A stretch of DNA of 9,853 nucleotides from Nanobdellota archaeon (lineage in GTDB: Archaea; Nanobdellota; Nanobdellia; SCGC-AAA011-G17; VGLX01), in NCBI GenBank assembly GCA_030691925.1, contig JAUYDG010000118.1:1-9853 (forward strand), written 5' to 3'. A program made the translations under genes and the position numbers. The notes beneath the pieces are model-generated. The model was given only the letters and a program-made list of their open reading frames with translations. It did no database searches and was not told the DNA's origin. Shown one piece after another: positions 1 to 9,853 of the stretch; the stretch's first letter is position 1, and each line of letters starts with the position of its first letter.

Positions 1-495
1 GATCTCCCCGTCTTCCATGGATTCTCCGGTGTCATTTCTTACGCTGCCCTTCACTATCACCTTGCCACCTTTCATGCAGCGCCCTGTAGCGTTTCTAGTG
101 TCCCCTTCTATTATCACCGTCCCTTTTCTAAGGTACATGCCTAAACCTGTCAGCAGCCCGTTTGGCGATAGCACTACCTCGTCTTTTTTCCTGATTTTCC
201 TGTTGATAACTGCTGAGAGGTATATGCCTAAAGTTTCATCTTCTCCAGGCCCTATCCTTTTGCTCAGCTCTTCCACGTCTTTTAGCGTGTAGCTTAATCC
301 CTTTGTCAGCCTTAGCGCTTTTTTATAATTCGAGTCGTAATCTTCAACTTTTCCTTTTAAGAACTCTTTGCTGTAAGCTGCTAAGCTTCCTACTGCCAAG
401 GTATTATAACCATGTACGGACTCGCTTTCTTGAAGAAGGGCTTCTATCTTCTGGTCTAGGTTCTTTTCTGTAACGAATGTGAGTGGTATTTTCAT
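1..495 (-). CDS. Hypothetical protein, N-terminal 165 codons (its 3' end runs off the left edge). The distal part shows GXGXG-type beta-helix repeats, as in FwdC and the glutamate synthase C-terminal domain.
   Basis: It is absent from the supplied track because there is no stop codon in the window. Hand translation of the reverse strand from the ATG at 495-493 is open for all 165 codons down to position 1: MKIPLTFVTEKNLDQKIEALLQESESVHGYNTLAVGSLAAYSKEFLKGKVEDYDSNYKK...GMYLRKGTVIIEGDTRNATGRCMKGGKVIVKGSVRNDTGESMEDGEI. The periodicity G-x-V/I-x-V/I-x-G ... G-x-x-M-x-x-G repeats. The 91-aa plus-strand ORF 17..292 is its antisense shadow. Confidence 0.6.
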   Translation of the reverse strand, partial: MKIPLTFVTEKNLDQKIEALLQESESVHGYNTLAVGSLAAYSKEFLKGKVEDYDSNYKKALRLTKGLSYTLKDVEELSKRIGPGEDETLGIYLSAVINRKIRKKDEVVLSPNGLLTGLGMYLRKGTVIIEGDTRNATGRCMKGGKVIVKGSVRNDTGESMEDGEI

Positions 496-521
496 CCTGC
501 AACGTGGGATGGTGCATTGTT

Positions 522-529
522 TTTTAAAA
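522..529 (-). promoter_or_regulatory. TATA-like box (TTTTAAAA on the minus strand) for the CDS starting at 495
   Basis: The AT-rich 8-mer is centred about 30 nt upstream of the ATG at 495, which would give a 5' leader of only a few nt. Confidence 0.35.
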
Positions 530-565
530 CTTGCTTTTTAGGGTGAGCCTTTACCCTGGTAATTG

Positions 566-570
566 AAAAA
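566..570 (-). terminator. Oligo-T run (T5 on the minus strand), a candidate archaeal terminator for the 1939..694 transcription unit
   Basis: It is the first run of five or more T on the minus strand after the stop at 694-696. Archaeal termination typically uses oligo-T tracts. Confidence 0.25.
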
Positions 571-645
571 GATGTTAAGGTGTCATGGAATAAGGCCGGG
601 TGCATGAGTCTTTGGATGCGGTCATAATATTTTTTCTGCTGCACG

Positions 646-683
646 AGATATAAGCTCTTTTAATATTCTTAGAAATAAGCTCT
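646..683. repeat. Two copies of a 13-nt direct repeat (AGATATAAGCTCT / AGAAATAAGCTCT) offset by 25 nt
   Basis: Copies at 646-658 and 671-683 match at 12 of 13 positions by hand. They lie just downstream (minus sense) of the stop of CDS 694..1353. Significance is unknown. Confidence 0.4.
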
Positions 684-693
684 AGCTGTAATG

Positions 694-1353
694 TTACCCT
701 ATCATTCCTAATAGGTAGAATACTAGTCCGTCTGCCAGTTTTATCAGGTCGTCTTCTGTCTGTCCTTCTATTATCACGCATCCTTTTTCGTCTTTTATTG
801 CTGTCTCTTCCCCTAGTTGCAGCATTATTATTGCTGTGTCTTTTGTTGCGTCGCTGCAGGTTTTTATTATGCGCTCTTTGTCGCCTTCGTATTTGCTGGT
901 GAATGCGCTCTTCACCGGTATCTTGAATAGGTAAGAATTGTCCAGGAACTTGTCTATTTCCAGCGCAGCTATGGTTGTTTTTCCCATAAGCCTTTGATCA
1001 TTAGGGTCTATCACTACGTATGCCTCTTTTTTTGTTATTACGTCCTGTTTGACGTCAGGGTTTATTTTCAGGCCGTTCATCTCTGCCGGCTCGTGCCTAG
1101 TGTATACGTACTTCGGGTTTGGGTCGTTGTTGACGAATATTTTTATTCTGTAGGTTATCCCTCCGTCCTTTGTTGTCCCTATCTGCTGTACATCAAATGT
1201 TTCCACTCCATGCGCGTACTGGTATGTCCCGTGCTTTATCTTTTGGCTGAAGAATGCGAAGAATCCGAATGCCAGCAGTATTATTACCAGGCTGTAGACT
1301 ATGACCTTTATTTTTTTCTCTTCTTTTTTTGTTTCTTTCTGTTCTTCTTCCAT
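694..1353 (-). CDS. Single-pass (N-in signal-anchor) membrane protein of unknown function, paralog of 1355..1939
   Basis: The 219-aa ORF has a K/E-rich N-terminus (MEEEQKETKKEEKKIK), one hydrophobic helix (VIVYSLVIILLAFGFFAFF) and a soluble domain of about 180 aa. Its C-terminal module, IIKTCSDATKDTAIIMLQLGEETAIKDEKGCVIIEGQTEDDLIKLADGLVFYLLG, aligns with the neighbour. The start ATG lies 1 nt after the upstream gene's TAA. Confidence 0.8.
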   Translation of the reverse strand: MEEEQKETKKEEKKIKVIVYSLVIILLAFGFFAFFSQKIKHGTYQYAHGVETFDVQQIGTTKDGGITYRIKIFVNNDPNPKYVYTRHEPAEMNGLKINPDVKQDVITKKEAYVVIDPNDQRLMGKTTIAALEIDKFLDNSYLFKIPVKSAFTSKYEGDKERIIKTCSDATKDTAIIMLQLGEETAIKDEKGCVIIEGQTEDDLIKLADGLVFYLLGMIG

Positions 1354-1354
1354 C

Positions 1355-1939
1355 TTATATGCCTATCAGTGAGAAGTATATCTTGTCTGTGGCTTTTATC
1401 AGGTTTTCGCTTGCCCCTTCCATCGTTAGGCAGTTGGCTTTGTAGCTTATTTTTGTTTCTTCTGCTTTTTTGAATATTACCACTGCCTGTTCTTGCGTTG
1501 CGTCTTCGCAGGTTTTTATTGGTAATTCCTCGCATCCTGGCTTGTCTTCTGTGCATGCGTATGGTTTCAGCTCTGTTATGCCTATCTTTTTTTTGAAGTA
1601 GTCCATCGCTCTTGCGTTTGTTTTTATGTCGTCTGTGCTTATGTACATCTTTTGCGAGTAGCTCATCATCTGGACGTTTTCAGGTATTTCTATACTTTCC
1701 AGGTCTTCTGGGCTGTATGACAGGGTTATTTGCTGGTTGTCTTTGTATGCTACCCAGAACCCTTGTTCTGATTTTAGGAATTTCAAGCCATGATAGTCGT
1801 ATTTTTCCTCTTCTTCTTCATTCATGTTTAATGCGCTGGCTACCATTATGAGTATTATGAATCCCCCTATCATGTATGTTAGAGTCCTTTTTTTTGAGAA
1901 CAGAGGTTCTTTTTTTTCTTGTATTTTCTTTTTTTTCAT
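1355..1939 (-). CDS. Single-pass (N-in signal-anchor) membrane protein of unknown function, paralog of 694..1353
   Basis: The 194-aa ORF has a K-rich N-terminus (MKKKKIQEKKEP), a TM helix (YMIGGFIILIMVASAL) and an acidic linker (NEEEEE), followed by a soluble domain. Its C-terminal module is LPIKTCEDATQEQAVVIFKKAEETKISYKANCLTMEGASENLIKATDKIYFSLIG. It has four Cys against two in the paralog. Confidence 0.8.
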   Translation of the reverse strand: MKKKKIQEKKEPLFSKKRTLTYMIGGFIILIMVASALNMNEEEEEKYDYHGLKFLKSEQGFWVAYKDNQQITLSYSPEDLESIEIPENVQMMSYSQKMYISTDDIKTNARAMDYFKKKIGITELKPYACTEDKPGCEELPIKTCEDATQEQAVVIFKKAEETKISYKANCLTMEGASENLIKATDKIYFSLIGI

Positions 1940-1962
1940 ACCTTATACTTATTTGTTGCCTT

Positions 1963-1970
1963 TTTATAAA
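1963..1970 (-). promoter_or_regulatory. TATA box (TTTATAAA) for the 1939..694 two-gene unit
   Basis: The 8-mer is centred about 27 nt upstream of the ATG at 1939, which implies a leaderless transcript. It lies immediately next to the stop (1978-1980) of the upstream SpoIIM-like gene. Confidence 0.5.
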
Positions 1971-1977
1971 TTTATCT

Positions 1978-2859
1978 TTAGAACAATGCTGGTGTGATGT
2001 ACACTTCTACGAATGCCGCTAGGAATAGCACGCCTGTTGCCAGCAGTATGACATCCACAGAGTCCAGCAGCACGTGCTTGAACTGTTTTGTTCCCAGCTC
2101 GTGCCTTATCACTGCTACTGAGATTATGCCTCCTGCAAGGGCCCCCATGAAGTAGGCCAGTATTTCGAAGACGCCGTGTGTCATGTACCTGAATACTCCT
2201 ATTGAGAATATGCTGAAGTAGCCTATGCCTGTTACCGTGCTTAGGTTGGTTCTTACGAAGTTGCCTATCGCTGCTGATATGACGCTTGCGTTCCACGTCA
2301 GTATGAATATCGCTCCTGAGCCGTAGAAGAATGAGAAGAATATGCAGAACATCAGTACTTTCACGTTGTTTTCCAGTATCTTCCAGAACAGCTGGTCGCT
2401 AGTCAGTTCTCCGGTCAAATCTCTTATGGCTCCGATCCCTACAAATGACCCTATAGTCGCTGCTGAGCCGCTTATCTTGGCGTTGATCGCCGATATTGTT
2501 TGTATCTGTGTTGCGAACATCGTTTCTGTCATGTGCGCTGGGAGGAATACGTACCATAATGAGAAGCTTATGATGAATCCGAAGAAAAGGCATACTAGGA
2601 AGCATATCACTCTGCTGTGTTCTTTTAGCAGTATTACCTCTTTTTTGTGGTCTTCATTTTTTTCTTCCCTTCTTATCGCGTGGAATATCAATGGGACGCA
2701 TGCCAGTGATGTCAGGAACACCATTACAAGGCTTGATTGCTCGTAGAATATCCATAATCCAAGGAACATGGCTATTGTTGAGTAGAATATTCCTATGAAG
2801 AACATATCCCAGGGCTTTCTTTCTGCCGCCAGTGGTGTGATGAGTGATTCGAGTACCAT
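1978..2859 (-). CDS. SpoIIM-like (stage II sporulation protein M / former DUF95 family) polytopic membrane protein
   Basis: The 293-aa ORF has about six hydrophobic helices. The C-terminal segment, RYMTHGVFEILAYFMGALAGGIIS, resembles the conserved HG-x-x-E-I/L-x-A...AG motif of the SpoIIM family as I remember it. The family is common in archaea. Confidence 0.7.
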   Translation of the reverse strand: MVLESLITPLAAERKPWDMFFIGIFYSTIAMFLGLWIFYEQSSLVMVFLTSLACVPLIFHAIRREEKNEDHKKEVILLKEHSRVICFLVCLFFGFIISFSLWYVFLPAHMTETMFATQIQTISAINAKISGSAATIGSFVGIGAIRDLTGELTSDQLFWKILENNVKVLMFCIFFSFFYGSGAIFILTWNASVISAAIGNFVRTNLSTVTGIGYFSIFSIGVFRYMTHGVFEILAYFMGALAGGIISVAVIRHELGTKQFKHVLLDSVDVILLATGVLFLAAFVEVYITPALF

Positions 2860-2882
2860 ATTCTTGTTTTGGCATTAATGGG

Positions 2883-2890
2883 TATATATA
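2883..2890 (-). promoter_or_regulatory. TATA box (TATATATA, preceded by AAAAAC on the minus strand) for the SpoIIM-like gene
   Basis: It is centred about 27-28 nt upstream of the ATG at 2859, which implies a leaderless transcript. Confidence 0.55.
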
Positions 2891-2920
2891 GTTTTTGTCG
2901 GATTATTTTTTTGGTTTATC

Positions 2921-2926
2921 AAAAAA
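2921..2926 (-). terminator. Oligo-T run (T6 on the minus strand) 12 nt after the stop of the PagL-like gene
   Basis: The minus strand reads TAG GATTCACATAC TTTTTT GATAAACC AAAAAAA. This is a T6 tract typical of archaeal terminators. It could also pair weakly with the downstream A7. Confidence 0.3.
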
Positions 2927-2937
2927 GTATGTGAATC

Positions 2938-3609
2938 CTATGAAGCCCCTAGCGCGTTGATTCCTTCGTTTCTCTTTGCTAGGCTTGCGTTTGATATGTG
3001 GTGGAACATTAGTTCTCCGTCTATCGACAAGTTTTTGCTTATCAGGTAGCGTAGTCCTATGCTTCCTTGCGGTGTGAATTCTATCGCTTGGCCTATCGCT
3101 TGTTGTTTTTGGTCTTCGTGGGCGTTGGTGTACACCATTCCTGCTCCGAGTTGGAGGTAGGGTGAGAGTTTTGATTTTTCCGGCACTATGTTATATCTGA
3201 GCAGTAATGTTGCGCCGGTTAGGTAGTTTCCAAATCCTTTGTGTATGAGCGAGTTTGATATTTCGGATATGGCCTCTAGGTTGCCTCTTGGTAGTATGCT
3301 CAGCTTTGCGGGGTTGTTTATCATCCAGCCTAGTCTTAGGTTGGTTTGGGCGTAGTTGAACTGTGGTGTTTTTGGCCCTAGGCCGCATGGTGAGTATAAC
3401 AGTCCAGAAATGGTTTGTAGTGATATTCTGTCTTTTGTGAAGATCGTGTCTAGGTATGGTTTTTCTTTTTCTTGGTGGCTGATTGTTTCGACTTTTTTTG
3501 GTGTGTTTTCATGGTTTTTTTGTTCGTTGGCGTATGTTGGGCTGGAGAGCGCTAAGTAGCTTGCGAGTATTGTGCCTAAAAACCAGGATGCTTTTCTTAG
3601 TTTCTTCAT
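2938..3609 (-). CDS. Secreted beta-barrel protein resembling the lipid A 3-O-deacylase PagL / acyloxyacyl hydrolase family. Its 3' end is possibly frameshifted.
   Basis: The 223-aa ORF has a Sec-type signal peptide (MKKLRKASWFLGTILASYLALSSPTYA / NEQ). It has alternating-hydrophobic strands (NLRLGWMI, GATLLLRYNIV, SPYLQLGAGMVYT, GSIGLRYLIS, LSIDGELMFHH). The near-C-terminal HHISNASLAKRNEGIN lines up with the P. aeruginosa PagL catalytic segment HYSNAGLKQPNDGIE as I recall it. Confidence 0.6.
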   Translation of the reverse strand: MKKLRKASWFLGTILASYLALSSPTYANEQKNHENTPKKVETISHQEKEKPYLDTIFTKDRISLQTISGLLYSPCGLGPKTPQFNYAQTNLRLGWMINNPAKLSILPRGNLEAISEISNSLIHKGFGNYLTGATLLLRYNIVPEKSKLSPYLQLGAGMVYTNAHEDQKQQAIGQAIEFTPQGSIGLRYLISKNLSIDGELMFHHISNASLAKRNEGINALGAS

Positions 3610-3648
3610 TTTTTTATGCCTATTTGTGGTTTAGGATGTTAGGTTTAG

Positions 3649-3656
3649 TATATAAA
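3649..3656 (-). promoter_or_regulatory. TATA box (AAAG TTTATATA C on the minus strand) upstream of the PagL-like gene
   Basis: It is centred about 43 nt upstream of the ATG at 3609, which predicts a leader of about 17 nt. Among the predicted first genes here, this is the only one with a leader of this length. The 8-mer TTTATATA is identical to that of the e2b2 promoter. Confidence 0.45.
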
Positions 3657-3693
3657 CTTTACGATTTGTAGAAACTTAATAGTAGTAACAATT

Positions 3694-4071
3694 TTAGCTG
3701 GAAGATACAAGAATGACGCCCATTATTATTACGCCTATGCTCAGCCATCTCATCTTGCTTATCTCTTCTTTGAACGCCATTTTTGAGCCTATAGCGGCAA
3801 GTACATAGTTGAGGCTTACCATTGGATAGATGTAGCTGAGCTCTAAGCCGGATATTATCACTAGCCATAATAAGGTGCTGCACGCGAATAACATGACTCC
3901 GCAGATGACTGCCTTGTTGGTGAACATCTTCAAAAGAGTTCTGAAAAGGTTCCGCGCTCCTTTGGAGAAAAGGGTCACTTCTCCTACGTTGTTCATGCCT
4001 TTTTTGAGCAGTAGTTGCCCGGCCAGCCCTATCATGAGGCTTACGAAAAAGAGTATGAAGTAAATGTTCAT
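3694..4071 (-). CDS. Half-size DMT/EamA-type transporter subunit, ArnE/ArnF-like (putative polyprenyl-phosphate-sugar flippase subunit)
   Basis: The 125-aa ORF has four predicted TM helices. SLMIGLAGQLLLKKG and LLWLVIISGLELSYIYPMVSLNYVLAAIGSKMAFKEEISKMRWLSIGVIIMGVILV resemble E. coli ArnE as I recall it (SVAGQLCQKQA ... [44 protein letters not shown]). Its ATG overlaps the upstream stop as ATGA (4071-4068). A GAGG lies 7 nt upstream (4079-4082). Confidence 0.8.
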   Translation of the reverse strand: MNIYFILFFVSLMIGLAGQLLLKKGMNNVGEVTLFSKGARNLFRTLLKMFTNKAVICGVMLFACSTLLWLVIISGLELSYIYPMVSLNYVLAAIGSKMAFKEEISKMRWLSIGVIIMGVILVSSS

Positions 4072-4436
4072 TTTTTAGCCTCGCTTTTTGACATCAAGAA
4101 GACTCCGGAGCATATTATTAAAATCCCCGCCATCCTTATTATCGAGAGGTTTTCTTTGAAGAATGCCCATGCTGCTACTGCAGTGATGATGTAGCCTATG
4201 CTGATCATCGGATAAGCGTAACTTAAATCAGCCCTTGACAGCGCTGAGAGCCAAAATATTGAGCTTGCGCCTACAGCTAGCATGCCGACGAGAATAAACG
4301 GGTTCGTGAATATGTTGACGTAGCTTGTCACCAAATCACCGAACTGGAAAGTGGATTGTTGCAGACCGTATTTTACTATGAGGTTTCCAGCATTTATCAG
4401 TATTACCGAAGCTAAAATGTATTTGAATATTTTCAT
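4068..4436 (-). CDS. Half-size DMT/EamA-type transporter subunit, ArnE/ArnF-like, partner of 3694..4071
   Basis: The 122-aa ORF has four predicted TM helices. It carries the same core motif (LSRADLSYAYPMISIGYIITAVAAWAFFKENLSIIRMAGILIICSGVFLM). The 4-nt ATGA overlap with the next gene suggests a heterodimeric pair. Confidence 0.8.
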   Translation of the reverse strand: MKIFKYILASVILINAGNLIVKYGLQQSTFQFGDLVTSYVNIFTNPFILVGMLAVGASSIFWLSALSRADLSYAYPMISIGYIITAVAAWAFFKENLSIIRMAGILIICSGVFLMSKSEAKK

Positions 4437-4462
4437 CTCGTACAGCTCTTACGGCAATGTGC

Positions 4463-4470
4463 TTAAAAAA
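4463..4470 (-). promoter_or_regulatory. TATA-like box (TTTTTTAA on the minus strand) for the transporter pair
   Basis: It is centred about 30 nt upstream of the ATG at 4436, within the 81-nt divergent spacer 4437..4517. Confidence 0.4.
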
Positions 4471-4487
4471 CTTTTGGGTTGGAAAAC

Positions 4488-4495
4488 TTTATATA
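4488..4495 (+). promoter_or_regulatory. TATA box (TTTATATA) with a purine-rich BRE-like GGAAAAC upstream, promoter of the e2b2-rbcL unit
   Basis: It is centred about 26-27 nt upstream of the ATG at 4518, which implies a leaderless mRNA. There is no Shine-Dalgarno-like sequence between the box and the ATG. Confidence 0.6.
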
Positions 4496-4517
4496 GAAAT
4501 TTGAAGTTATCTTCTTT

Positions 4518-5348
4518 ATGAACTTTGGGCAGATATGCAGGGATATAAAATCTTTAAAGATTCAGGGTGCTACTAATGTTGCAAGAGCAGGTATCCAAGC
4601 CTTGAAGCTGAAACACGATCCGGCTTCTGTTAAGAAGATAATCAGCTTAAGGCCTACAGAGCCTGCGCTGAGAAATGCTATAAAATTCTCTTTGAAGGAT
4701 ATGAAGAACAATCCTGATAAGGTGTTGAGGCATTTTGATGAAGCCCAGAAAAAGATTGCTGAGATTGGCGCTAGGAAAATACCTGAGGACTCTATCGTCT
4801 TTACCCATTGCCATGCTTCTACTGTTACTGGCATTTTGAAAGAAGCGTTTAAGACTAAAAAGTTTGAGGTCTACTGCACAGAAACAAGGCCGATGTATCA
4901 GGGGAGAAGAACTGCTATAGAATTAGCTGCTGCAAAGATTCCTGTCACGATGTTCGTAGATTCTGCTGCCCGCTATGCTTTGAAAAAAGCGGATATAATG
5001 CTTATCGGCGCTGATGCTATTCTTTCCAGCGGCAAGATAGCTAATAAGATCGGCTCAGAGCTTTTCGCAGAGGTCGCCAGGAAGTATGATGTTCCTGTCC
5101 TTGTCTGCACTGACGCATGGAAGTTTGACCCTATGACTGTTTGGGGGTATGAGGAAGAGATGGAGAAGAGGGAGACGAAAGAGGTCTGGTCCAACCCTCC
5201 TAAAGGTGTTAAGATTAGCAATATTGCTTTTGAGCTTGTAAGTCCTGGGCTTGTCACAAGCATAATCTCCGAGCTCGGAGTTTACAGCGTTGAGAATTTC
5301 ATAATAGAGGTTAAGAAGAGCTATCCGTGGATGTTTGATGTTCCTTGA
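4518..5348 (+). CDS. e2b2: Ribose-1,5-bisphosphate isomerase (aIF-2B/e2b2 family)
   Basis: The 276-aa ORF carries eIF-2B-family signatures: IQGATNVARAG, VFTHCHASTV (the Cys corresponds to the catalytic Cys of the T. kodakarensis enzyme) and IGADAILSSGKIANKIGS (catalytic Asp). Its length matches short archaeal e2b2 proteins rather than the longer MtnA. It lies in the same transcription direction as form III RuBisCO, three genes upstream. Confidence 0.75.
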   Translation: MNFGQICRDIKSLKIQGATNVARAGIQALKLKHDPASVKKIISLRPTEPALRNAIKFSLKDMKNNPDKVLRHFDEAQKKIAEIGARKIPEDSIVFTHCHASTVTGILKEAFKTKKFEVYCTETRPMYQGRRTAIELAAAKIPVTMFVDSAARYALKKADIMLIGADAILSSGKIANKIGSELFAEVARKYDVPVLVCTDAWKFDPMTVWGYEEEMEKRETKEVWSNPPKGVKISNIAFELVSPGLVTSIISELGVYSVENFIIEVKKSYPWMFDVP

Positions 5349-5372
5349 TTCCAAGGAAAGAGGTGATTAGGG

Positions 5373-5391
5373 CGCTGTAACTTTTACAGCG
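5373..5391 (+). other. Perfect 8-bp inverted repeat (CGCTGTAA ctt TTACAGCG) in the e2b2 / ORF133 spacer, followed by a T-rich tract
   Basis: The arms at 5373-5380 and 5384-5391 are exact reverse complements, with a 3-nt loop. TCCTTATTTTATA follows. It could be a partial terminator, a processing site or an RNA-stability element. Confidence 0.3.
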
Positions 5392-5404
5392 TCCTTATTT
5401 TATA

Positions 5405-5806
5405 ATGATGCAAGGCGATATTAAGAAAAGAGAGGGTGTTGAGAAGGGCAGAAGCGCTTTCAAGAAAGTTTTTGAGCTGGTAGTTTTTTCCCTCCTCTTG
5501 GCGTTGCTCATCGCTCCAGGTCTTTTTTACACGGATGTTATCGCCCATGAGTTTTATCATTATCTAAAGCACCAGGATGTTGCTGAGGAGATATGCATAG
5601 ACCTCAACAAGCCTTACCTCGGCCATGTTAAGATAAGATTTGACAGCGAGGACCAGCTGTTGAAGTATGAGTCTGAGCAGCAAAGCAAGGAAGAGAAGAA
5701 CGCTGACCTGTTCGGCCATGTGGCTTCTGCTATCTACCTCGTTAACGCTTTGGTTGTTGTCCATTGGATGCTTTGGCTTGTAACACGAAGGAATAGAGGG
5801 CAATGA
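5405..5806 (+). CDS. Small two-TM membrane protein with HExxH and ExxAD motifs, a putative minimal gluzincin (M48/M56-like) metallopeptidase
   Basis: The 133-aa ORF has an N-terminal TM helix (VFELVVFSLLLALLIAPGLFY) followed directly by AHEFYH (H48-E49-x-x-H52). EKNAD (E97-x-x-A100-D101) sits just before a C-terminal TM helix (VASAIYLVNALVVVHWMLWLV). An in-frame stop at 5378-5380 fixes the start at 5405 or 5408. Its TGA overlaps the next ATG (ATGA at 5803-5806). Confidence 0.6.
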   Translation: MMQGDIKKREGVEKGRSAFKKVFELVVFSLLLALLIAPGLFYTDVIAHEFYHYLKHQDVAEEICIDLNKPYLGHVKIRFDSEDQLLKYESEQQSKEEKNADLFGHVASAIYLVNALVVVHWMLWLVTRRNRGQ

Positions 5807-6435
5807 GCTTGATATGTTTTGACTTGGATAACACCCTTGTCGATTCTGACAGGCTGCACATTCTTGCTTTCAAGAAGGCTTTCCAGGATTATAACCTCCC
5901 TAAAGTCAGGGATGCTGTTATAAGAGGCCTTCTCAGCATCACATCTGACCTTCTTGTTAAGAAAATTTTTCCTGAGCTTCCTAAAGGCGAAATAAGAAAA
6001 GTTGTTGAGAGCCATAACAAGTACATTGTTGCTTACGCTAAGGGCCTTGTCAAGCAGTTTCCTGGCGTTAAGCCCACGCTTATTAAGATCAAGGAGCGCC
6101 ACAGGCTGGGCATAGTCTCTAATTGCTCTCGCAAAGAGATAGTAGCGATATTGGGAAGCGCAGGCATAAGCATAGGCCTTTTTGACGTTGTAGTAAGCGA
6201 TGACAGGCTTAAGCATGGCAAGCCCTGGCCTGACGGGATTTTGAAGGCGGGAGGGCTGATGCAAAGCAAGGTGGATTACATGGTTGGTGACAGCCCTTAT
6301 GATGTCATGGCTGGAAAGAGGGCGGGATGTAAGACTGTTGCTGTTTTGACTGGTGATTTTAGCAGGGAAAGATTAAAAAAAGAGAAACCTGATTATATTA
6401 TTAATAGTCTGAAAGAATTGCTCGGGGTGGTATGA
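5803..6435 (+). CDS. HAD-IA superfamily phosphatase (phosphoglycolate phosphatase / PGP-like)
   Basis: The 210-aa ORF has all four HAD motifs: I CFDLDNTLVDS (DxDxT), II IVSN, III HGKPWPD and IV VGDSPYDVMAG. There is a cap-domain-sized insert between motifs I and II. Confidence 0.9.
   Translation: MSLICFDLDNTLVDSDRLHILAFKKAFQDYNLPKVRDAVIRGLLSITSDLLVKKIFPELPKGEIRKVVESHNKYIVAYAKGLVKQFPGVKPTLIKIKERHRLGIVSNCSRKEIVAILGSAGISIGLFDVVVSDDRLKHGKPWPDGILKAGGLMQSKVDYMVGDSPYDVMAGKRAGCKTVAVLTGDFSRERLKKEKPDYIINSLKELLGVV
6424..6430 (+). promoter_or_regulatory. Shine-Dalgarno-like GGGGTGG for rbcL
   Basis: It lies 5 nt upstream of the ATG at 6436, inside the 3' end of the HAD gene. It is complementary to the conserved 3' end of 16S rRNA (CCUCC/CACC region). 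Confidence 0.4.
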
Positions 6436-7743
6436 ATGGCAGAAGAGATCGAGTGGTATCATGAGTTCATAAACAAAAACTACAAGCCGAAAAAGGATGA
6501 TGTCAAAGTTTTGTTCTATTACGAGCCTGCCGAAGGGATAACCAACGAGGATGCTATCGGGAGGATTGCTAGCGAGAGCTCTTCCGGAACATGGACTACG
6601 CTGACAGAGCTGCCTAAGCTGCTGCCCAAGGTTAAGGCTTACGCTTACGAGTATGACAGCAATTATGTGAAGATTGCTTATCCGATAATCGACTTTGAGA
6701 AAGGTTCTGTGCCCTGCATGGTGAGTGCGATAGGCGGCAACATTTTTGGCATGAAAGCGTTGAACAACTTACGGCTTATCGATGCGGAACTTCCTTTAGA
6801 CTATATTAAAGATTTTAAAGGGCCTAACTACGGGGTTGACGTTATCAAGAGGATATTCAAGAGAAAATCTGGGCCTGTAACTTCAGTAGTCCCGAAGCCT
6901 AAGATAGGATATACCGCTGAAGAGCATGCGAAGAAAGTAGCTTACGCTGTCTGGAAGGGCGGAATAGACTGTGTTAAAGACGATGAAAACTTAACAAATC
7001 AAAGTTTCAATAAGTTTGAGCCGAGAGTAAAATTCTTAGCAAAGTATAGAGACAAGGCCATGAAAGAGACTGGTGAAGTGAAGGATGCCTTTATCAACGT
7101 TACTTCTTCTAACTTGAAGGAGTTGGAGAGAAGGGTCAAGCTGGTTCACGATTATGGATTTAAGTATTTCATGATTGACATGGTGGTTAGTGGTTTCACT
7201 GCTGTTGGAACTGCTGTCGAGTTAGCTTATGATTATGATATGGCCATACACGGTCATCGTGCAATGCATTCTATGTTCACTAGGAATCCTAAGCATGGTA
7301 TGACAATGCTTTTCCTTGCCAAACTTCTGCGTCTGATAGGCGTTGACCAGATACATACTGGCACTGGTGTTGGAAAGCTGGAAGGCTCTGCAGAGAGCAT
7401 AATGGCTATGGAAAAGATGCTTATGAACCAAGAAGTTGATAAAATCGAGAATGTTAGGATGCCTCAGAAGTGGGGTAAGATTAAGCCAGTACTACCAGTA
7501 TCTTCTGGAGGCTTGCATCCGGGTATAATTCCTGCTGTGTTTGATATTTATGGTACTACTAATATCGGGCTTCAAGTTGGCGGAGGTACGCTTGGGCATC
7601 CAGATGGCGCAGAGGCCGGGGCTAAGGCTGTTACGCAAGCTATCGAAGCATATAAACAAAAAATAAGTTTAGAGGAGTACGCTGAAAAGCATAAAGAATT
7701 GAAAAGGGCTTTAGAAAAGTGGGGTCATCTGAAGCCGATCTGA
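6436..7743 (+). CDS. rbcL: Ribulose-1,5-bisphosphate carboxylase/oxygenase large subunit, form III (archaeal type)
   Basis: The 435-aa ORF carries all the canonical catalytic and binding motifs: ASESSSGTWTT, GGNIFGM, VVPKPKIGY (K175/K177), GGIDCVKDDENL (carbamylated K201, D203, E204), AIHGHRAMH (H294/R295), VDQIHTGT (H327), GKLEG (K334), SSGGLHPG and GGGTLGHPDG. The C-terminus, HKELKRALEKWGH, is closely similar to the T. kodakarensis enzyme as I recall it. There is no small-subunit gene. Confidence 0.95.
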   Translation: MAEEIEWYHEFINKNYKPKKDDVKVLFYYEPAEGITNEDAIGRIASESSSGTWTTLTELPKLLPKVKAYAYEYDSNYVKIAYPIIDFEKGSVPCMVSAIGGNIFGMKALNNLRLIDAELPLDYIKDFKGPNYGVDVIKRIFKRKSGPVTSVVPKPKIGYTAEEHAKKVAYAVWKGGIDCVKDDENLTNQSFNKFEPRVKFLAKYRDKAMKETGEVKDAFINVTSSNLKELERRVKLVHDYGFKYFMIDMVVSGFTAVGTAVELAYDYDMAIHGHRAMHSMFTRNPKHGMTMLFLAKLLRLIGVDQIHTGTGVGKLEGSAESIMAMEKMLMNQEVDKIENVRMPQKWGKIKPVLPVSSGGLHPGIIPAVFDIYGTTNIGLQVGGGTLGHPDGAEAGAKAVTQAIEAYKQKISLEEYAEKHKELKRALEKWGHLKPI

Positions 7744-7755
7744 AAGCCATAACTT

Positions 7756-7763
7756 TTTTATAA
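7756..7763 (+). promoter_or_regulatory. TATA box (TTTTATAA) for the PHP gene. The T-run may also terminate the rbcL unit.
   Basis: It is centred about 26 nt upstream of the ATG at 7785, which implies a leaderless transcript. It begins 13 nt after the rbcL TGA and is part of a T6 run (7754-7759). Confidence 0.55.
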
Positions 7764-7784
7764 CTTTCTTGTCTATTATTTCCC

Positions 7785-8501
7785 ATGTTAAAGGCTGACT
7801 TTCATTCGCATACGAACTATGTGATACCCAAGAGGGATAGTAATCTTAGTCCTAAGCAGCTTATAGATTTTGTAGCTTCTAAAGGCTATGAGGTTTTGGC
7901 TATTACGGAGCATGCTTCTCTGAAATGCTTGTTAGGACGCATTGAGTATATTGATAATCCTTTGAGGACTTATTTTGATTTTAAGGATTATGCGAAGAAG
8001 AAAGGGGTACTTCTGATTCCAGGGGTTGAGACTTTTGTTGAGGGCAAAGAGGTTTTGCTGGTAAACTTTAAGGGCGATGCTAAGAAGGTCAGGACTTTTG
8101 CTGATGTTGAGAGTTTGAAGAAGGAAAACGTTTTGGTCATAGCGCCGCACCCTTTTTATGGTAAGCCTTCTTGTTTGAAAAAAAAGCTGGTGGAGCACAT
8201 TGATGTTTTTGATGCTATAGAGCACTGCCATTTTTACACCAGCTTTATCAACCCTAACAGGAAAGCTGTCGAGATTGCCAGGAGGTATAACAAGCCTTTG
8301 ATAGCCACTAGTGACGCTCACAATTTTAGCCAGATAGGCACAAATTTTTCATTGGTTGATGCTAAGAAGGATGTTGACAGCGTATTAGAGGCGGTCAGGA
8401 AAGGCAGGGTTGAAATAGTGACTGAGCCTTTGCCTCTTTGGAAGTTTTTAGGGATCGCTTCCTGGTCGGTTATGGCTGTTTTCAAGAAAAGGGTTATCTA
8501 G
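7785..8501 (+). CDS. PHP-domain metal-dependent phosphoesterase
   Basis: The 238-aa ORF has a complete set of PHP metal-ligand motifs: DFHSHT (HxH), LAITEH, PGVET, IAPHP and ATSDAH. The C-terminal 25 aa are hydrophobic/amphipathic (LPLWKFLGIASWSVMAVF). Confidence 0.9.
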   Translation: MLKADFHSHTNYVIPKRDSNLSPKQLIDFVASKGYEVLAITEHASLKCLLGRIEYIDNPLRTYFDFKDYAKKKGVLLIPGVETFVEGKEVLLVNFKGDAKKVRTFADVESLKKENVLVIAPHPFYGKPSCLKKKLVEHIDVFDAIEHCHFYTSFINPNRKAVEIARRYNKPLIATSDAHNFSQIGTNFSLVDAKKDVDSVLEAVRKGRVEIVTEPLPLWKFLGIASWSVMAVFKKRVI

Positions 8502-9853
8502 CCTTTGTAGTGCTTTCTTAGCATTTCCATTGCCAGCTTCCCGTCAAAGGATCCGCCGTATTTTTTTCTTATGTCCCCCATCAGGCCGCCGATAGGTGCT
8601 TTGGGGTTTTTTTCGACGAGCTCTTTTATGAATGATTCCAGTTCTTCTGCTGGTATCTGTTTATACTTTTCAAGGTTTATCTTTCTTCCTTGTGCTGCCT
8701 CTGCCAGGAGTTCTATGACTGCTTCTCTTGATATCTTCTCTCGGTTTAGTGCGTCTATGACTTCTTCGTAGTCTTCTTTTTTTATGCTTCCAGTGTCTAG
8801 CTTCAGCCTTGACCTTATTTCTTTTGGCGTTTCTACTAGTATTTGTGCTATCACGCTTGGTTTGAGGTTGTGGTATTTTTGCGCGTATTCTTTCAGCTCT
8901 ATCTCTTCCTGCACTATCTCTCTTGCCAGGTCTGCGTTTAGCCCGAACTGTTTTTCTATTTTTATCGCTTTTTCTGTCAGCAGCTCTGGCAGCTCTATCC
9001 TGTTGAGCCATTCTTTTGTTATTCTTATTGGTAAAACATCTGTTTCTGGGTACATTCTTGCTGATCCTGGCATCGGTCTCATGAAGCTTGTCGTTCCGTC
9101 TTCATTTGCTTTCCTGACTTCTGGTTTTACTTCCAGCTTCTGCTCTATGATGCTTCTTTGCCTTTCTATTTCTTTTAGTATGACTTTTGGTATCGCTCTT
9201 AGGTCTTGGAAGCCTTTTATTTCCACCCTTGCCCCTTCGGTTATGCTTAGGTTTATGTCTTGCCTTATGCTGCCTATTCCCCTTATGGCCCTTCCTGTGC
9301 TTCTGAGTATCATGCCGAGTGTTTGCGCAACTTCTTTTGCATGCTCCGGTGTTTTTATGTCTGCTTCTGTCTGTATCTCTATCAGTGGTATGCCTAGCCT
9401 GTCCAGGCGCCATATTCTTGATATTTTTTCCTCTTTGATGTTTTTTGCTGCTTCTTCTTCCAGGCAGATTGAGCCTATCTTTACGTTTCCTAGTGAGGTG
9501 TTTATGTAGCCGTCTTTTGCTATCAGAGCTGTTCTTTGGAATCCGGTGGTGTTGCTTCCGTCTACGACTGTTTTTCTCATGAAGTGGACTTCGTCTACGG
9601 CTTTTGCGTTTAAGAGCTTTGAGACTTGTAATGCTATCCCCAAAGCGTCCATGTTTAGAGGCCCTGGTGGCTCCTCGTCGAGCTCTACGTTGCATGTCGT
9701 GTCTGAGTATGCTTCATAGATGAACTCAAGGTTTTTGGCCATCTCGTGCTTTGCTGCTATGTCTATTTCTCCTGTTTCGCCTGCAACAGCCCTTAGCTTC
9801 CTTTTTATGATTATGTCCGGCTTGTCATCCCTTAAGACAGAGGGGCATTTGCA
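8498..9853 (-). CDS. gatE: Glutamyl-tRNA(Gln) amidotransferase subunit E (archaeal GatE). Its 5' end lies beyond the right edge.
   Basis: The track ORF starts at an internal Met (9742). The same frame stays open to 9853 and reads CKCPSVLRDDKPDIIIKRKLRAVAGETGEIDIAAKHE-MAKNLEF.... GatE hallmarks are CNVELDEEPP, RKTVVDGSNTTGFQRTALIA, LDRLGIPLIEI, GIGSIRQDINLSI and RVEIKGFQDL. A C-terminal GatB/YqeY-type tail (GGLMGDIRKKYGG) is also present. Confidence 0.95.
   Translation of the reverse strand, partial: CKCPSVLRDDKPDIIIKRKLRAVAGETGEIDIAAKHEMAKNLEFIYEAYSDTTCNVELDEEPPGPLNMDALGIALQVSKLLNAKAVDEVHFMRKTVVDGSNTTGFQRTALIAKDGYINTSLGNVKIGSICLEEEAAKNIKEEKISRIWRLDRLGIPLIEIQTEADIKTPEHAKEVAQTLGMILRSTGRAIRGIGSIRQDINLSITEGARVEIKGFQDLRAIPKVILKEIERQRSIIEQKLEVKPEVRKANEDGTTSFMRPMPGSARMYPETDVLPIRITKEWLNRIELPELLTEKAIKIEKQFGLNADLAREIVQEEIELKEYAQKYHNLKPSVIAQILVETPKEIRSRLKLDTGSIKKEDYEEVIDALNREKISREAVIELLAEAAQGRKINLEKYKQIPAEELESFIKELVEKNPKAPIGGLMGDIRKKYGGSFDGKLAMEMLRKHYKG

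Follow-up and report, generated by a model that had tools for sequence, protein, structure and literature searches.

Bacterial cbb operons carry HAD phosphatases, CbbZ acting on 2-phosphoglycolate (2-PG) and CbbY on xylulose-1,5-bisphosphate (XuBP). The AMP/pentose bisphosphate pathway of Thermococcus kodakarensis consists of AMP phosphorylase, a ribose-1,5-bisphosphate (R15P) isomerase, and a form III RuBisCO, and was reportedly described by Sato 2007 and Aono 2015. Versions of it have been described from DPANN archaea and candidate phyla radiation (CPR) bacteria (PMC5113843, Wrighton 2016; PMC6389311, Jaffe 2019). The latter survey found the three pathway genes to be usually dispersed and the trees of RuBisCO and of the isomerase, e2b2, to be discordant; replacement in place was not reported there. 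A noncarboxylating pentose bisphosphate pathway of haloarchaea consists of an R15P isomerase, a HAD-type ribulose-1,5-bisphosphate (RuBP) phosphatase, and a ribulose-1-phosphate aldolase (PMC9700705). More recently, a Woesearchaeales subclade was inferred from gene trees to be a repeated sink for rbcL, the RuBisCO large-subunit gene (10.64898/2026.05.13.725050). Here, we analyzed a contig of 9,853 nucleotides (nt) from a Nanobdellota archaeon (JAUYDG010000118.1, positions 1 to 9,853; the whole stretch is referred to as the window), which carries e2b2 and rbcL in one cluster. With a probability of roughly 60%, we read this locus as the form that the archaeal pentose-bisphosphate (nucleotide-ribose salvage) module takes in Woesearchaeales, with a RuBisCO that can be swapped.

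Five open reading frames (ORFs) lie on the forward strand at this locus, with intergenic gaps of 56, -4, 0, and 41 nt. A sequence-only reading of the contig had given the same five genes, whose coordinates and spacing agree exactly with the ORF list, and Pfam and NCBIfam bore out its family calls (IF-2B with TIGR00511 as the best model, HAD_2/HAD-IA, RuBisCO_large, and PHP with PHP_C). The genes are as follows:

4518..5348, + strand: e2b2, R15P isomerase-like protein of the IF-2B family, 276 amino acids (aa), N-terminal domain shortened
5405..5806, + strand: small orphan membrane protein with two transmembrane (TM) helices and an HExxH...E motif, 133 aa, no Pfam or NCBIfam match
5803..6435, + strand: HAD-IA phosphatase, Gph/CbbZ-like, 210 aa, HAD_2 at 3e-30; first 4 nt shared with the small gene, end directly adjoining the rbcL ATG
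6436..7743, + strand: rbcL, form III RuBisCO large subunit (type A, see below), 435 aa, TIGR03326
7785..8501, + strand: PHP-family metal-dependent phosphoesterase, TM0559-like, 238 aa, PHP and PHP_C

Like the pathway of T. kodakarensis and its DPANN and CPR versions, the locus pairs an R15P isomerase-like e2b2 with a catalytically complete form III RuBisCO, here in one cluster, and, as in the DPANN and CPR surveys, the RuBisCO phylogeny is discordant with e2b2. The Woesearchaeal loci differ in having no AMP phosphorylase within 10 kb and in that rbcL replacements are visible in place, with edges at the level of the ORF. The study of Woesearchaeales rbcL (10.64898/2026.05.13.725050) concerns the same phylum and likewise has rbcL of several origins entering one lineage; its text, however, includes no isomerase, HAD, or operon context, whereas in the lineage of the window the acquired genes sit in a single fixed slot of the operon, with boundaries resolved at the nucleotide level, and include a form II/III occupant. 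In common with bacterial cbb operons, a HAD-IA phosphatase is encoded together with RuBisCO, and by profile it is nearest to the Gph/CbbZ-type 2-phosphoglycolate phosphatases (PGPs). In contrast to those operons, the setting is archaeal and non-Calvin, the cluster has no phosphoribulokinase or small subunit, and the HAD lies between isomerase and RuBisCO and scores under the PGP equivalog cutoffs. With the haloarchaeal pathway (Halxa_2271/VNG_1202C), to which we liken the locus by operon content only, it shares an R15P isomerase and a HAD hydrolase in one operon, but RuBisCO is present and there is no FucA-type aldolase in the flank annotations. A HAD and an orphan membrane protein as fixed cluster members are not described in PMC6389311, PMC5113843, PMC8421398, or 10.64898/2026.05.13.725050. 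The pathway and the lateral transfer of RuBisCO are already known, and the locus is a new variant of the cluster; the fixed e2b2-small-HAD chassis appears to be new, as do the in-place, ORF-bounded swapping of four RuBisCO clades and the conserved RNA element in the e2b2-small spacer.

In the arrangement that we propose, one promoter at about 4481-4497 would drive e2b2, a two-hairpin spacer, the small protein, the HAD, and the form III RuBisCO, with small, HAD, and rbcL translationally coupled, and the PHP gene would follow from its own promoter, outside the unit. The isomerase would convert R15P to RuBP and RuBisCO would convert RuBP to two 3-phosphoglycerate, both being established chemistry for the respective families. 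The HAD would clear by-products of RuBisCO, with 2-PG as the best guess. The replacement of rbcL in place, described below, implies recombination through the conserved flanks.

The window RuBisCO scored 534.7 bits with TIGR03326, over the curated cutoff of 497.45, is named type III RuBisCO in NCBI (P0027), and aligns end to end with the T. kodakarensis, Pyrococcus horikoshii, and 6hun enzymes. It falls in a large clade with Hadarchaeota, Micrarchaeota, and other DPANN members, at 65-78% identity. Active-site residues are intact (KPK, the carbamylated Lys in KDDE, HR, H, GK, SGG, and GGG). The cutoff and these residues indicate a catalytically complete form III enzyme and not a form IV RuBisCO-like protein, as had been proposed from the sequence. 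Neither a RuBisCO small subunit nor phosphoribulokinase was found in the window or in the 10-kb flanks of its relatives.

We compared about 20 related loci (L-numbers), the long contigs among them having been reached via homologues of the small protein; the window RuBisCO itself had no exact match in the contig index. In L001, L003, L005, L007, and L009, the neighboring genes are 55-86% identical to those of the window, and the RuBisCO in the same slot is 35-43% identical. The occupants of the slot fall into four types, across all of which the active-site residues are invariant:

Type A (window, L008, L010): form III, TIGR03326
Type B (L001, L003, L007, L009): second form III clade, 557-572 bits
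Type C (L005/L006): 623.7 bits with the form II-type model (cutoff, 489), with a long insertion
Type D (L065): at most 39% identical to all others, 377 bits, under the form III cutoff

Among the eight syntenic genomes, then, the slot is occupied by a form II/III enzyme and by two form III clades that share 43% identity, and in L065 it contains a fourth clade. The best PDB matches of the L005 enzyme are 8vgs (8e-267) and 5mac (1e-257), the form II/III enzyme of M. burtonii. By their neighbor genes, L001, L003, L005, and L009 form a tight group, with the window as sister and L007 and L008 as outgroups. Within that tight group, neighbor genes are 78-93% identical and rbcL is 40% identical. The RuBisCO types cut across this grouping, so that at least three replacements are needed.

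The replacements have edges. When L001 is compared with L005, the flanks show a nucleotide identity of 0.80-0.92 and the rbcL ORF one of 0.2-0.55, with sharp changes at the HAD stop codon and just before the PHP promoter. Between the window and L003, identity is 0.53 in rbcL and 0.66-0.82 in the flanks, with edges at ~6430 and ~7750. Edges at the HAD stop and the PHP promoter imply recombination through conserved flanks. We also considered assembly chimeras as the cause of the rbcL discordance and rejected them: independent assemblies show every type again (L001/L002, L003/L004, and L005/L006), and the coincidence of the replacement edges with conserved motifs further disfavors this explanation. 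The rbcL ORF is a swappable slot, and e2b2-small-HAD is a vertically inherited chassis. This unexpected replacement in place, which the sequence-only reading did not have, is the most notable feature of the locus. The patchy spread of RuBisCO in DPANN and CPR lineages has so far been ascribed to lateral transfer from gene trees, and this locus shows a physical route for it. The exchange of form III and form II/III enzymes exactly at ORF boundaries provides natural near-isogenic comparisons of RuBisCO forms and speaks for the interchangeability of these forms in nucleotide-ribose salvage.

The coding density of this DPANN genome is ~93%, and tight packing alone is therefore no evidence of an operon; the evidence comes from conservation across divergent genomic contexts and not from gene spacing. 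Six related genomes share the order EamA pair (- strand), e2b2-small-HAD-rbcL-PHP (+ strand), and GatE (- strand). Since the wider flanks of close relatives are also syntenic (SpoIIM, EamA pair, GatE, GatD, and FtsZ), shared order in these genomes proves little by itself. More distant loci are informative. L065 keeps e2b2-small-HAD-rbcL, with a small protein 47% identical to that of the window, in unrelated flanks (VIT1/DUF211 and AAA) that contain no EamA, PHP, or GatE. L061 has e2b2-small-HAD, a gap, and then rbcL; e2b2-small-HAD recurs on the short contigs L066 and L068, and the short contigs L064, L066, and L068 carry (e2b2-)small-HAD at 29-36% identity. L021 and L028 have e2b2-HAD-secreted protein-rbcL, and L060 has e2b2-HAD, two reverse-strand genes, and then rbcL, with no small gene. 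Wherever its neighbors could be identified, the small protein is flanked by e2b2 and HAD, down to 29% identity; the neighbors of the most distant family member, in L067, have no Pfam or NCBIfam match and speak neither for nor against linkage. The adjacency of e2b2 and HAD is the most invariant pairing among the loci compared, and e2b2 is linked to rbcL in every locus. The conserved unit (promoter, e2b2, structured spacer, small, HAD, and rbcL) thus persists down to 29-47% identity and in unrelated flanks. The earlier proposal that the HAD and the small HExxH membrane protein belong to the cluster is upheld by their recurrence in L065, L061, L066, and L068, and for the HAD also in L021, L028, and L060, and the gene order, found in close and divergent loci alike, is not unique to this contig.

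The same comparison removes PHP, which the sequence-only reading had counted as a cluster member, from the pathway model. In L007, the most divergent of the syntenic genomes, PHP has been inverted together with GatE, so that PHP lies on the other strand beyond GatE, two genes from rbcL, with e2b2-small-HAD-rbcL intact. No PHP gene was found within 10 kb in the distant Woesearchaeal loci L021, L028, L060, and L061, and none near rbcL in L065; all of the more distant clusters lack it. The L007 inversion, the distant loci that lack PHP, and the different flanks of L065 lead us to conclude that the core unit is e2b2-small-HAD-rbcL and that PHP is a neighbor. PHP also has a conserved promoter motif, located directly after the rbcL stop codon:

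7750..7763, + strand: TAACTTTTTTATAA, candidate oligo-T terminator signal for rbcL and BRE/TATA-like PHP promoter, ~26 nt before the PHP ATG

The distance between the TAACTTTTTTATAA motif and the PHP ATG is constant across L001, L003, L005, L008, L009, and L010, and the relocated PHP gene of L007 has kept it too. This conservation suggests that TAACTTTTTTATAA is PHP's own promoter, with the T-run serving also as an rbcL terminator signal, and that PHP is a separate transcription unit and not a member of the RuBisCO operon. By eye, the N- and C-terminal PHP motifs of the protein are intact. Its only PDB relative is TM0559 (2anu, 4.5e-8), which is uncharacterized.

The isomerase matches PF01008 at 4e-54. 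Of the IF-2B-family models, TIGR00511 scores best, at 174.7 bits, ahead of MtnA (112) and aIF2B-alpha (106), and the best PDB matches are the R15P isomerases of P. horikoshii and T. kodakarensis (3e-41), followed by aIF2B (5e-24) and MtnA (2e-23). The catalytic Cys and Asp (equivalent to T. kodakarensis Cys133 and Asp202) are kept and align with the positions changed in the C->S and D->N entries for P. horikoshii in the PDB. MtnA shares such Cys and Asp residues, and this test thus excludes only aIF2B. The N-terminal domain is ~40 aa shorter than in the solved enzymes. From score ranking and context, the protein appears closest to R15P isomerase rather than to MtnA or aIF2B, in line with what had been suggested from the sequence. 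Within e2b2 there is also a second mosaic tract (L001 ~9160-9880, compared with L005). L005 and L009 share a divergent e2b2 allele, 79% identical between the two and 63-68% identical to the e2b2 of their closest relatives. At the two ends of the gene, over the first ~100 nt and the last ~70 nt, identity is still 81-92%.

Two noncoding elements accompany the core unit, a candidate promoter upstream of e2b2 and a structured spacer downstream of it:

4481..4497, + strand: predicted operon promoter, BRE-like GGAAAAC and TATA box TTTATATA, ~27 nt upstream of the e2b2 ATG
5341..5404, + strand: structured spacer, with hairpin 1 (HP1), AGAGGUGA, hairpin 2 (HP2), U-run, and AUG in this order
5341-5358, + strand: HP1 (CCUUG/CAAGG), spanning the e2b2 stop codon
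5359-5366, + strand: conserved AGAGGUGA, invariant among the loci compared
5369-5395, + strand: HP2, a GC-rich stem of 11-13 bp, followed by the U-run and AUG

The motif AGAAAACTTTATATA occurs at the same distance from the e2b2 ATG in L001, L003, L005, L007, L009, and L065, which suggests that GGAAAAC-TTTATATA is the promoter of the e2b2-to-rbcL unit and that the mRNA may be leaderless or have a short leader. The 56-nt spacer between e2b2 and the small gene is conserved far above what the flanking proteins predict. Its folding z score is -5.4 in the window and ranges from -2.8 to -5.4 across loci, and the sequence of HP2 differs per lineage while its structure is kept. The motif is unique to the e2b2 junction in 864 kb of loci, with copies in L001 (9935-10001), L065 (2127-2194), L061 (8182-8253), L060 (7414-7490), and L066 (1044-1117); in L060, which has no small gene, the element directly precedes the HAD. 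A covariance model recovers the spacer in L066 and L068, both outside the set from which it was built. Covariation in HP2 is modest, with five of six modeled pairs compensatory and the observed score reached in 5 of 500 shuffles. A search of the window against Rfam gave no family for the spacer, only a sub-threshold chance match. In each of the six sequences examined, folding of HP2 places AGAGGUGA 10-13 nt from the AUG, a spacing that fits a hairpin-bridged ribosome-binding site; the spacer may be such a site or, alternatively, a terminator or attenuator.

The small protein has no match in Pfam or NCBIfam, and in 1.84 billion proteins clustered at 50% identity its family accounts for only 25 clusters, almost all of 95-156 aa; a metagenome scan with the family alignment gave a single 1-kb locus. 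H48, E49, H52, and A100 are invariant, and P38, C64, E97, and G104 are nearly so. The protein has two hydrophobic helices. In an AF2 model (pLDDT 77), a long helix with the HExxH motif follows TM1, and a beta-hairpin leads to a helix with E96/E97 that runs into TM2; Foldseek of this model against the PDB gave no match at E <= 0.001. Counts of K+R against D+E over 22 members (N-tail, 55/12; loop, 124/234; C-tail, 116/16) put both termini inside and the acidic HExxH loop outside, a topology predicted from charge distribution. The protein had been described as metalloprotease-like: the HExxH motif and the two TM helices are there, but peptidase activity is unsupported, with no zincin hidden Markov model (HMM) or fold match. 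We presume a likeness to minimal gluzincin-type or membrane-embedded HExxH metallopeptidases (M48/M56-like cores), in which an HExxH helix likewise emerges from a TM helix and a conserved Glu lies on a second helix ~45 residues on. The small protein differs from these in that its extramembrane part is only ~60 residues and gives no HMM or fold match. For a pathway believed to require three enzymes, the HAD and the small protein are two additional, consistently linked components, and both are targets for biochemistry. In L021 (9248-9991) and L028 (8075-8809), the place between HAD and rbcL is taken by a protein of ~245 aa whose N terminus carries a signal or anchor; it has no significant family match, only one below-threshold Pfam match. 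This extracytoplasmic protein inside the same operon echoes the outward-facing small protein.

The HAD protein scores 106 bits with HAD_2, against 23.8. Its motifs (DxD, S, K, and GDxxxD, with a C1 cap) are conserved in 11 orthologues, with D7, D9, S106, K140, and D163 invariant and D167 nearly so. By family profile, PGP-type HADs rank highest (5e-26, 2yy6), followed by the HAD pyrophosphatase BT2127 (1e-18), beta-phosphoglucomutase (1e-13), and CbbY (2e-11). We tentatively favor a clean-up phosphatase for by-products of RuBisCO, most likely 2-PG, while giving this role somewhat less than an even chance. CbbZ, the 2-PG phosphatase of bacterial cbb operons, is presumably an analogue for such a role, as is TK1734 of Thermococcus. 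The sequence-only reading had put forward 2-PG, PRPP, nucleotides, and pAp as possible substrates of the two phosphoesterases. T. kodakarensis, an anaerobe with a form III RuBisCO pathway, needs a 2-PG phosphatase under micro-oxic conditions (PMC11032457).

Several points weigh against this account of the locus. The HAD falls under all equivalog cutoffs, including those of PGPs (PGP_bact TIGR01449, 81.7 against 180; PRK13222, 89.2 against 225), and its best NCBIfam match is PpaX (9e-31; 107 against a cutoff of 218). It follows e2b2 more tightly than it follows rbcL, from which two reverse-strand genes separate it in L060, and this tighter tie also fits a role on R15P or RuBP. Most of the host organisms derive from suboxic or anoxic water, in which little 2-PG is expected to form. 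The isomerase is below the curated cutoff of TIGR00511 (174.7 against 314.1 bits), and its clade membership follows from score ranking and context and not from a tree. Similarly, the number and direction of the rbcL replacements derive from identity matrices and a neighbor-joining tree and not from a reconciled phylogeny, and the putative promoters, terminator, and co-transcription are read from motifs only. Finally, the outward topology predicted for the small protein has no obvious link to cytosolic sugar-phosphate chemistry.

AMP phosphorylase bears on what the HAD may do. As the sequence-only reading had it, the gene is not in the window; neither was it found in the 10-kb flanks of any Woesearchaeal locus, a search that covered flanks only. 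Its absence was taken as unusual, which no longer holds: the pathway genes are usually dispersed (PMC6389311), some Woesearchaeota encode the AMP phosphorylase gene, deoA, elsewhere in the genome (PMC8421398), and absence from the window says nothing about the genome. Compact e2b2-rbcL-deoA clusters, all without HAD, occur in L030, L032, and L033 (Nitrososphaera) and in L039 (Aenigmatarchaeota, with one small ORF inserted).

These clusters are compatible with a rival explanation for the HAD, namely, that it is a supply enzyme that replaces AMP phosphorylase by making R15P from phosphoribosyl pyrophosphate (PRPP) through removal of the beta-phosphate, or by another nucleotide or sugar-phosphate step. 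The e2b2-rbcL-deoA clusters lack HAD and the Woesearchaeal e2b2 clusters have HAD with no deoA within 10 kb, so that the two are complementary; PpaX is the best NCBIfam match and BT2127 ranks high by profile; and the HAD always comes directly after e2b2 or the small gene. The PpaX score is far under its cutoff, however, PGP-type HADs rank higher by profile, the deoA of some Woesearchaeota is found elsewhere in the genome, and the complementarity comes from two or three independent lineages only, which makes a supply role unlikely in our view. About equally unlikely is a pentose-bisphosphate phosphatase, either a RuBP phosphatase or a CbbY-like XuBP phosphatase that removes a RuBisCO inhibitor. 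Precedent for it exists in the strict RuBP phosphatase formed by a haloarchaeal HAD hydrolase in an R15P isomerase operon (PMC9700705) and in TK2301, a second HAD of T. kodakarensis, which prefers RuBP (PMC11032457), and both the invariance of the e2b2-HAD adjacency and the detectable CbbY profile agree with it. A RuBP phosphatase next to RuBisCO would, however, drain the shared substrate, and the Pfam annotations of the flank genes of L001-L009 include no class II aldolase (FucA); for XuBP, CbbY lies well below the PGP-type HADs by profile. We also sought the haloarchaeal e2b2-HAD-FucA operon in a plasmid collection, where the sole haloarchaeal match, in Salinigranum (L063), was an eIF-2B paralogue without HAD.

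Still more doubtful is a broader combination in which the HAD is the PRPP-to-R15P entry route in place of AMP phosphorylase, the chassis takes any RuBisCO form, and the spacer is a regulatory RNA controlling how strongly the genes after it are expressed. Least probable by far is that the cluster reflects inherited synteny only, with the HAD and the small protein as bystanders functionally unconnected with e2b2 or RuBisCO. The full order is indeed found mostly in fairly close relatives, whose wider flanks are syntenic as well, and short gaps are normal in dense DPANN genomes. Nevertheless, the four-gene core survives in L065 in wholly different flanks, the small protein keeps its place between e2b2 and HAD down to 29% identity, start and stop codons overlap or abut, and the core has stayed intact while rbcL and part of e2b2 recombined. 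PHP serves here as an internal control, as its linkage to the cluster does get lost.

Outside the cluster, a gene at 2938-3609 (- strand) encodes a PagL-like protein (PF09411, 3.8e-17) with a signal peptide. This member of a lipid A deacylase family of outer-membrane beta-barrels sits between SpoIIM and the EamA pair in an archaeal contig. At this position L003, L007, and L009 lack the gene, and other inserts are found in L001 and L008; the gene is probably a lateral acquisition. GatE, at 8498-9853 (- strand), identifies the organism as archaeal; its frame is open to base 9853 and runs off the end of the window; the copy in L001 spans 13060-14490. In this lineage GatE is ~476 aa, against ~620-630 aa in canonical models, with profile matches in two stretches, and it seems to be without an internal domain. 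Two adjacent membrane-anchored paralogues of 219 and 194 aa, with no Pfam match, are encoded downstream of SpoIIM at 694-1353 and 1355-1939 (- strand), and the pair is conserved in L001, L003, L007, L008, and L009.

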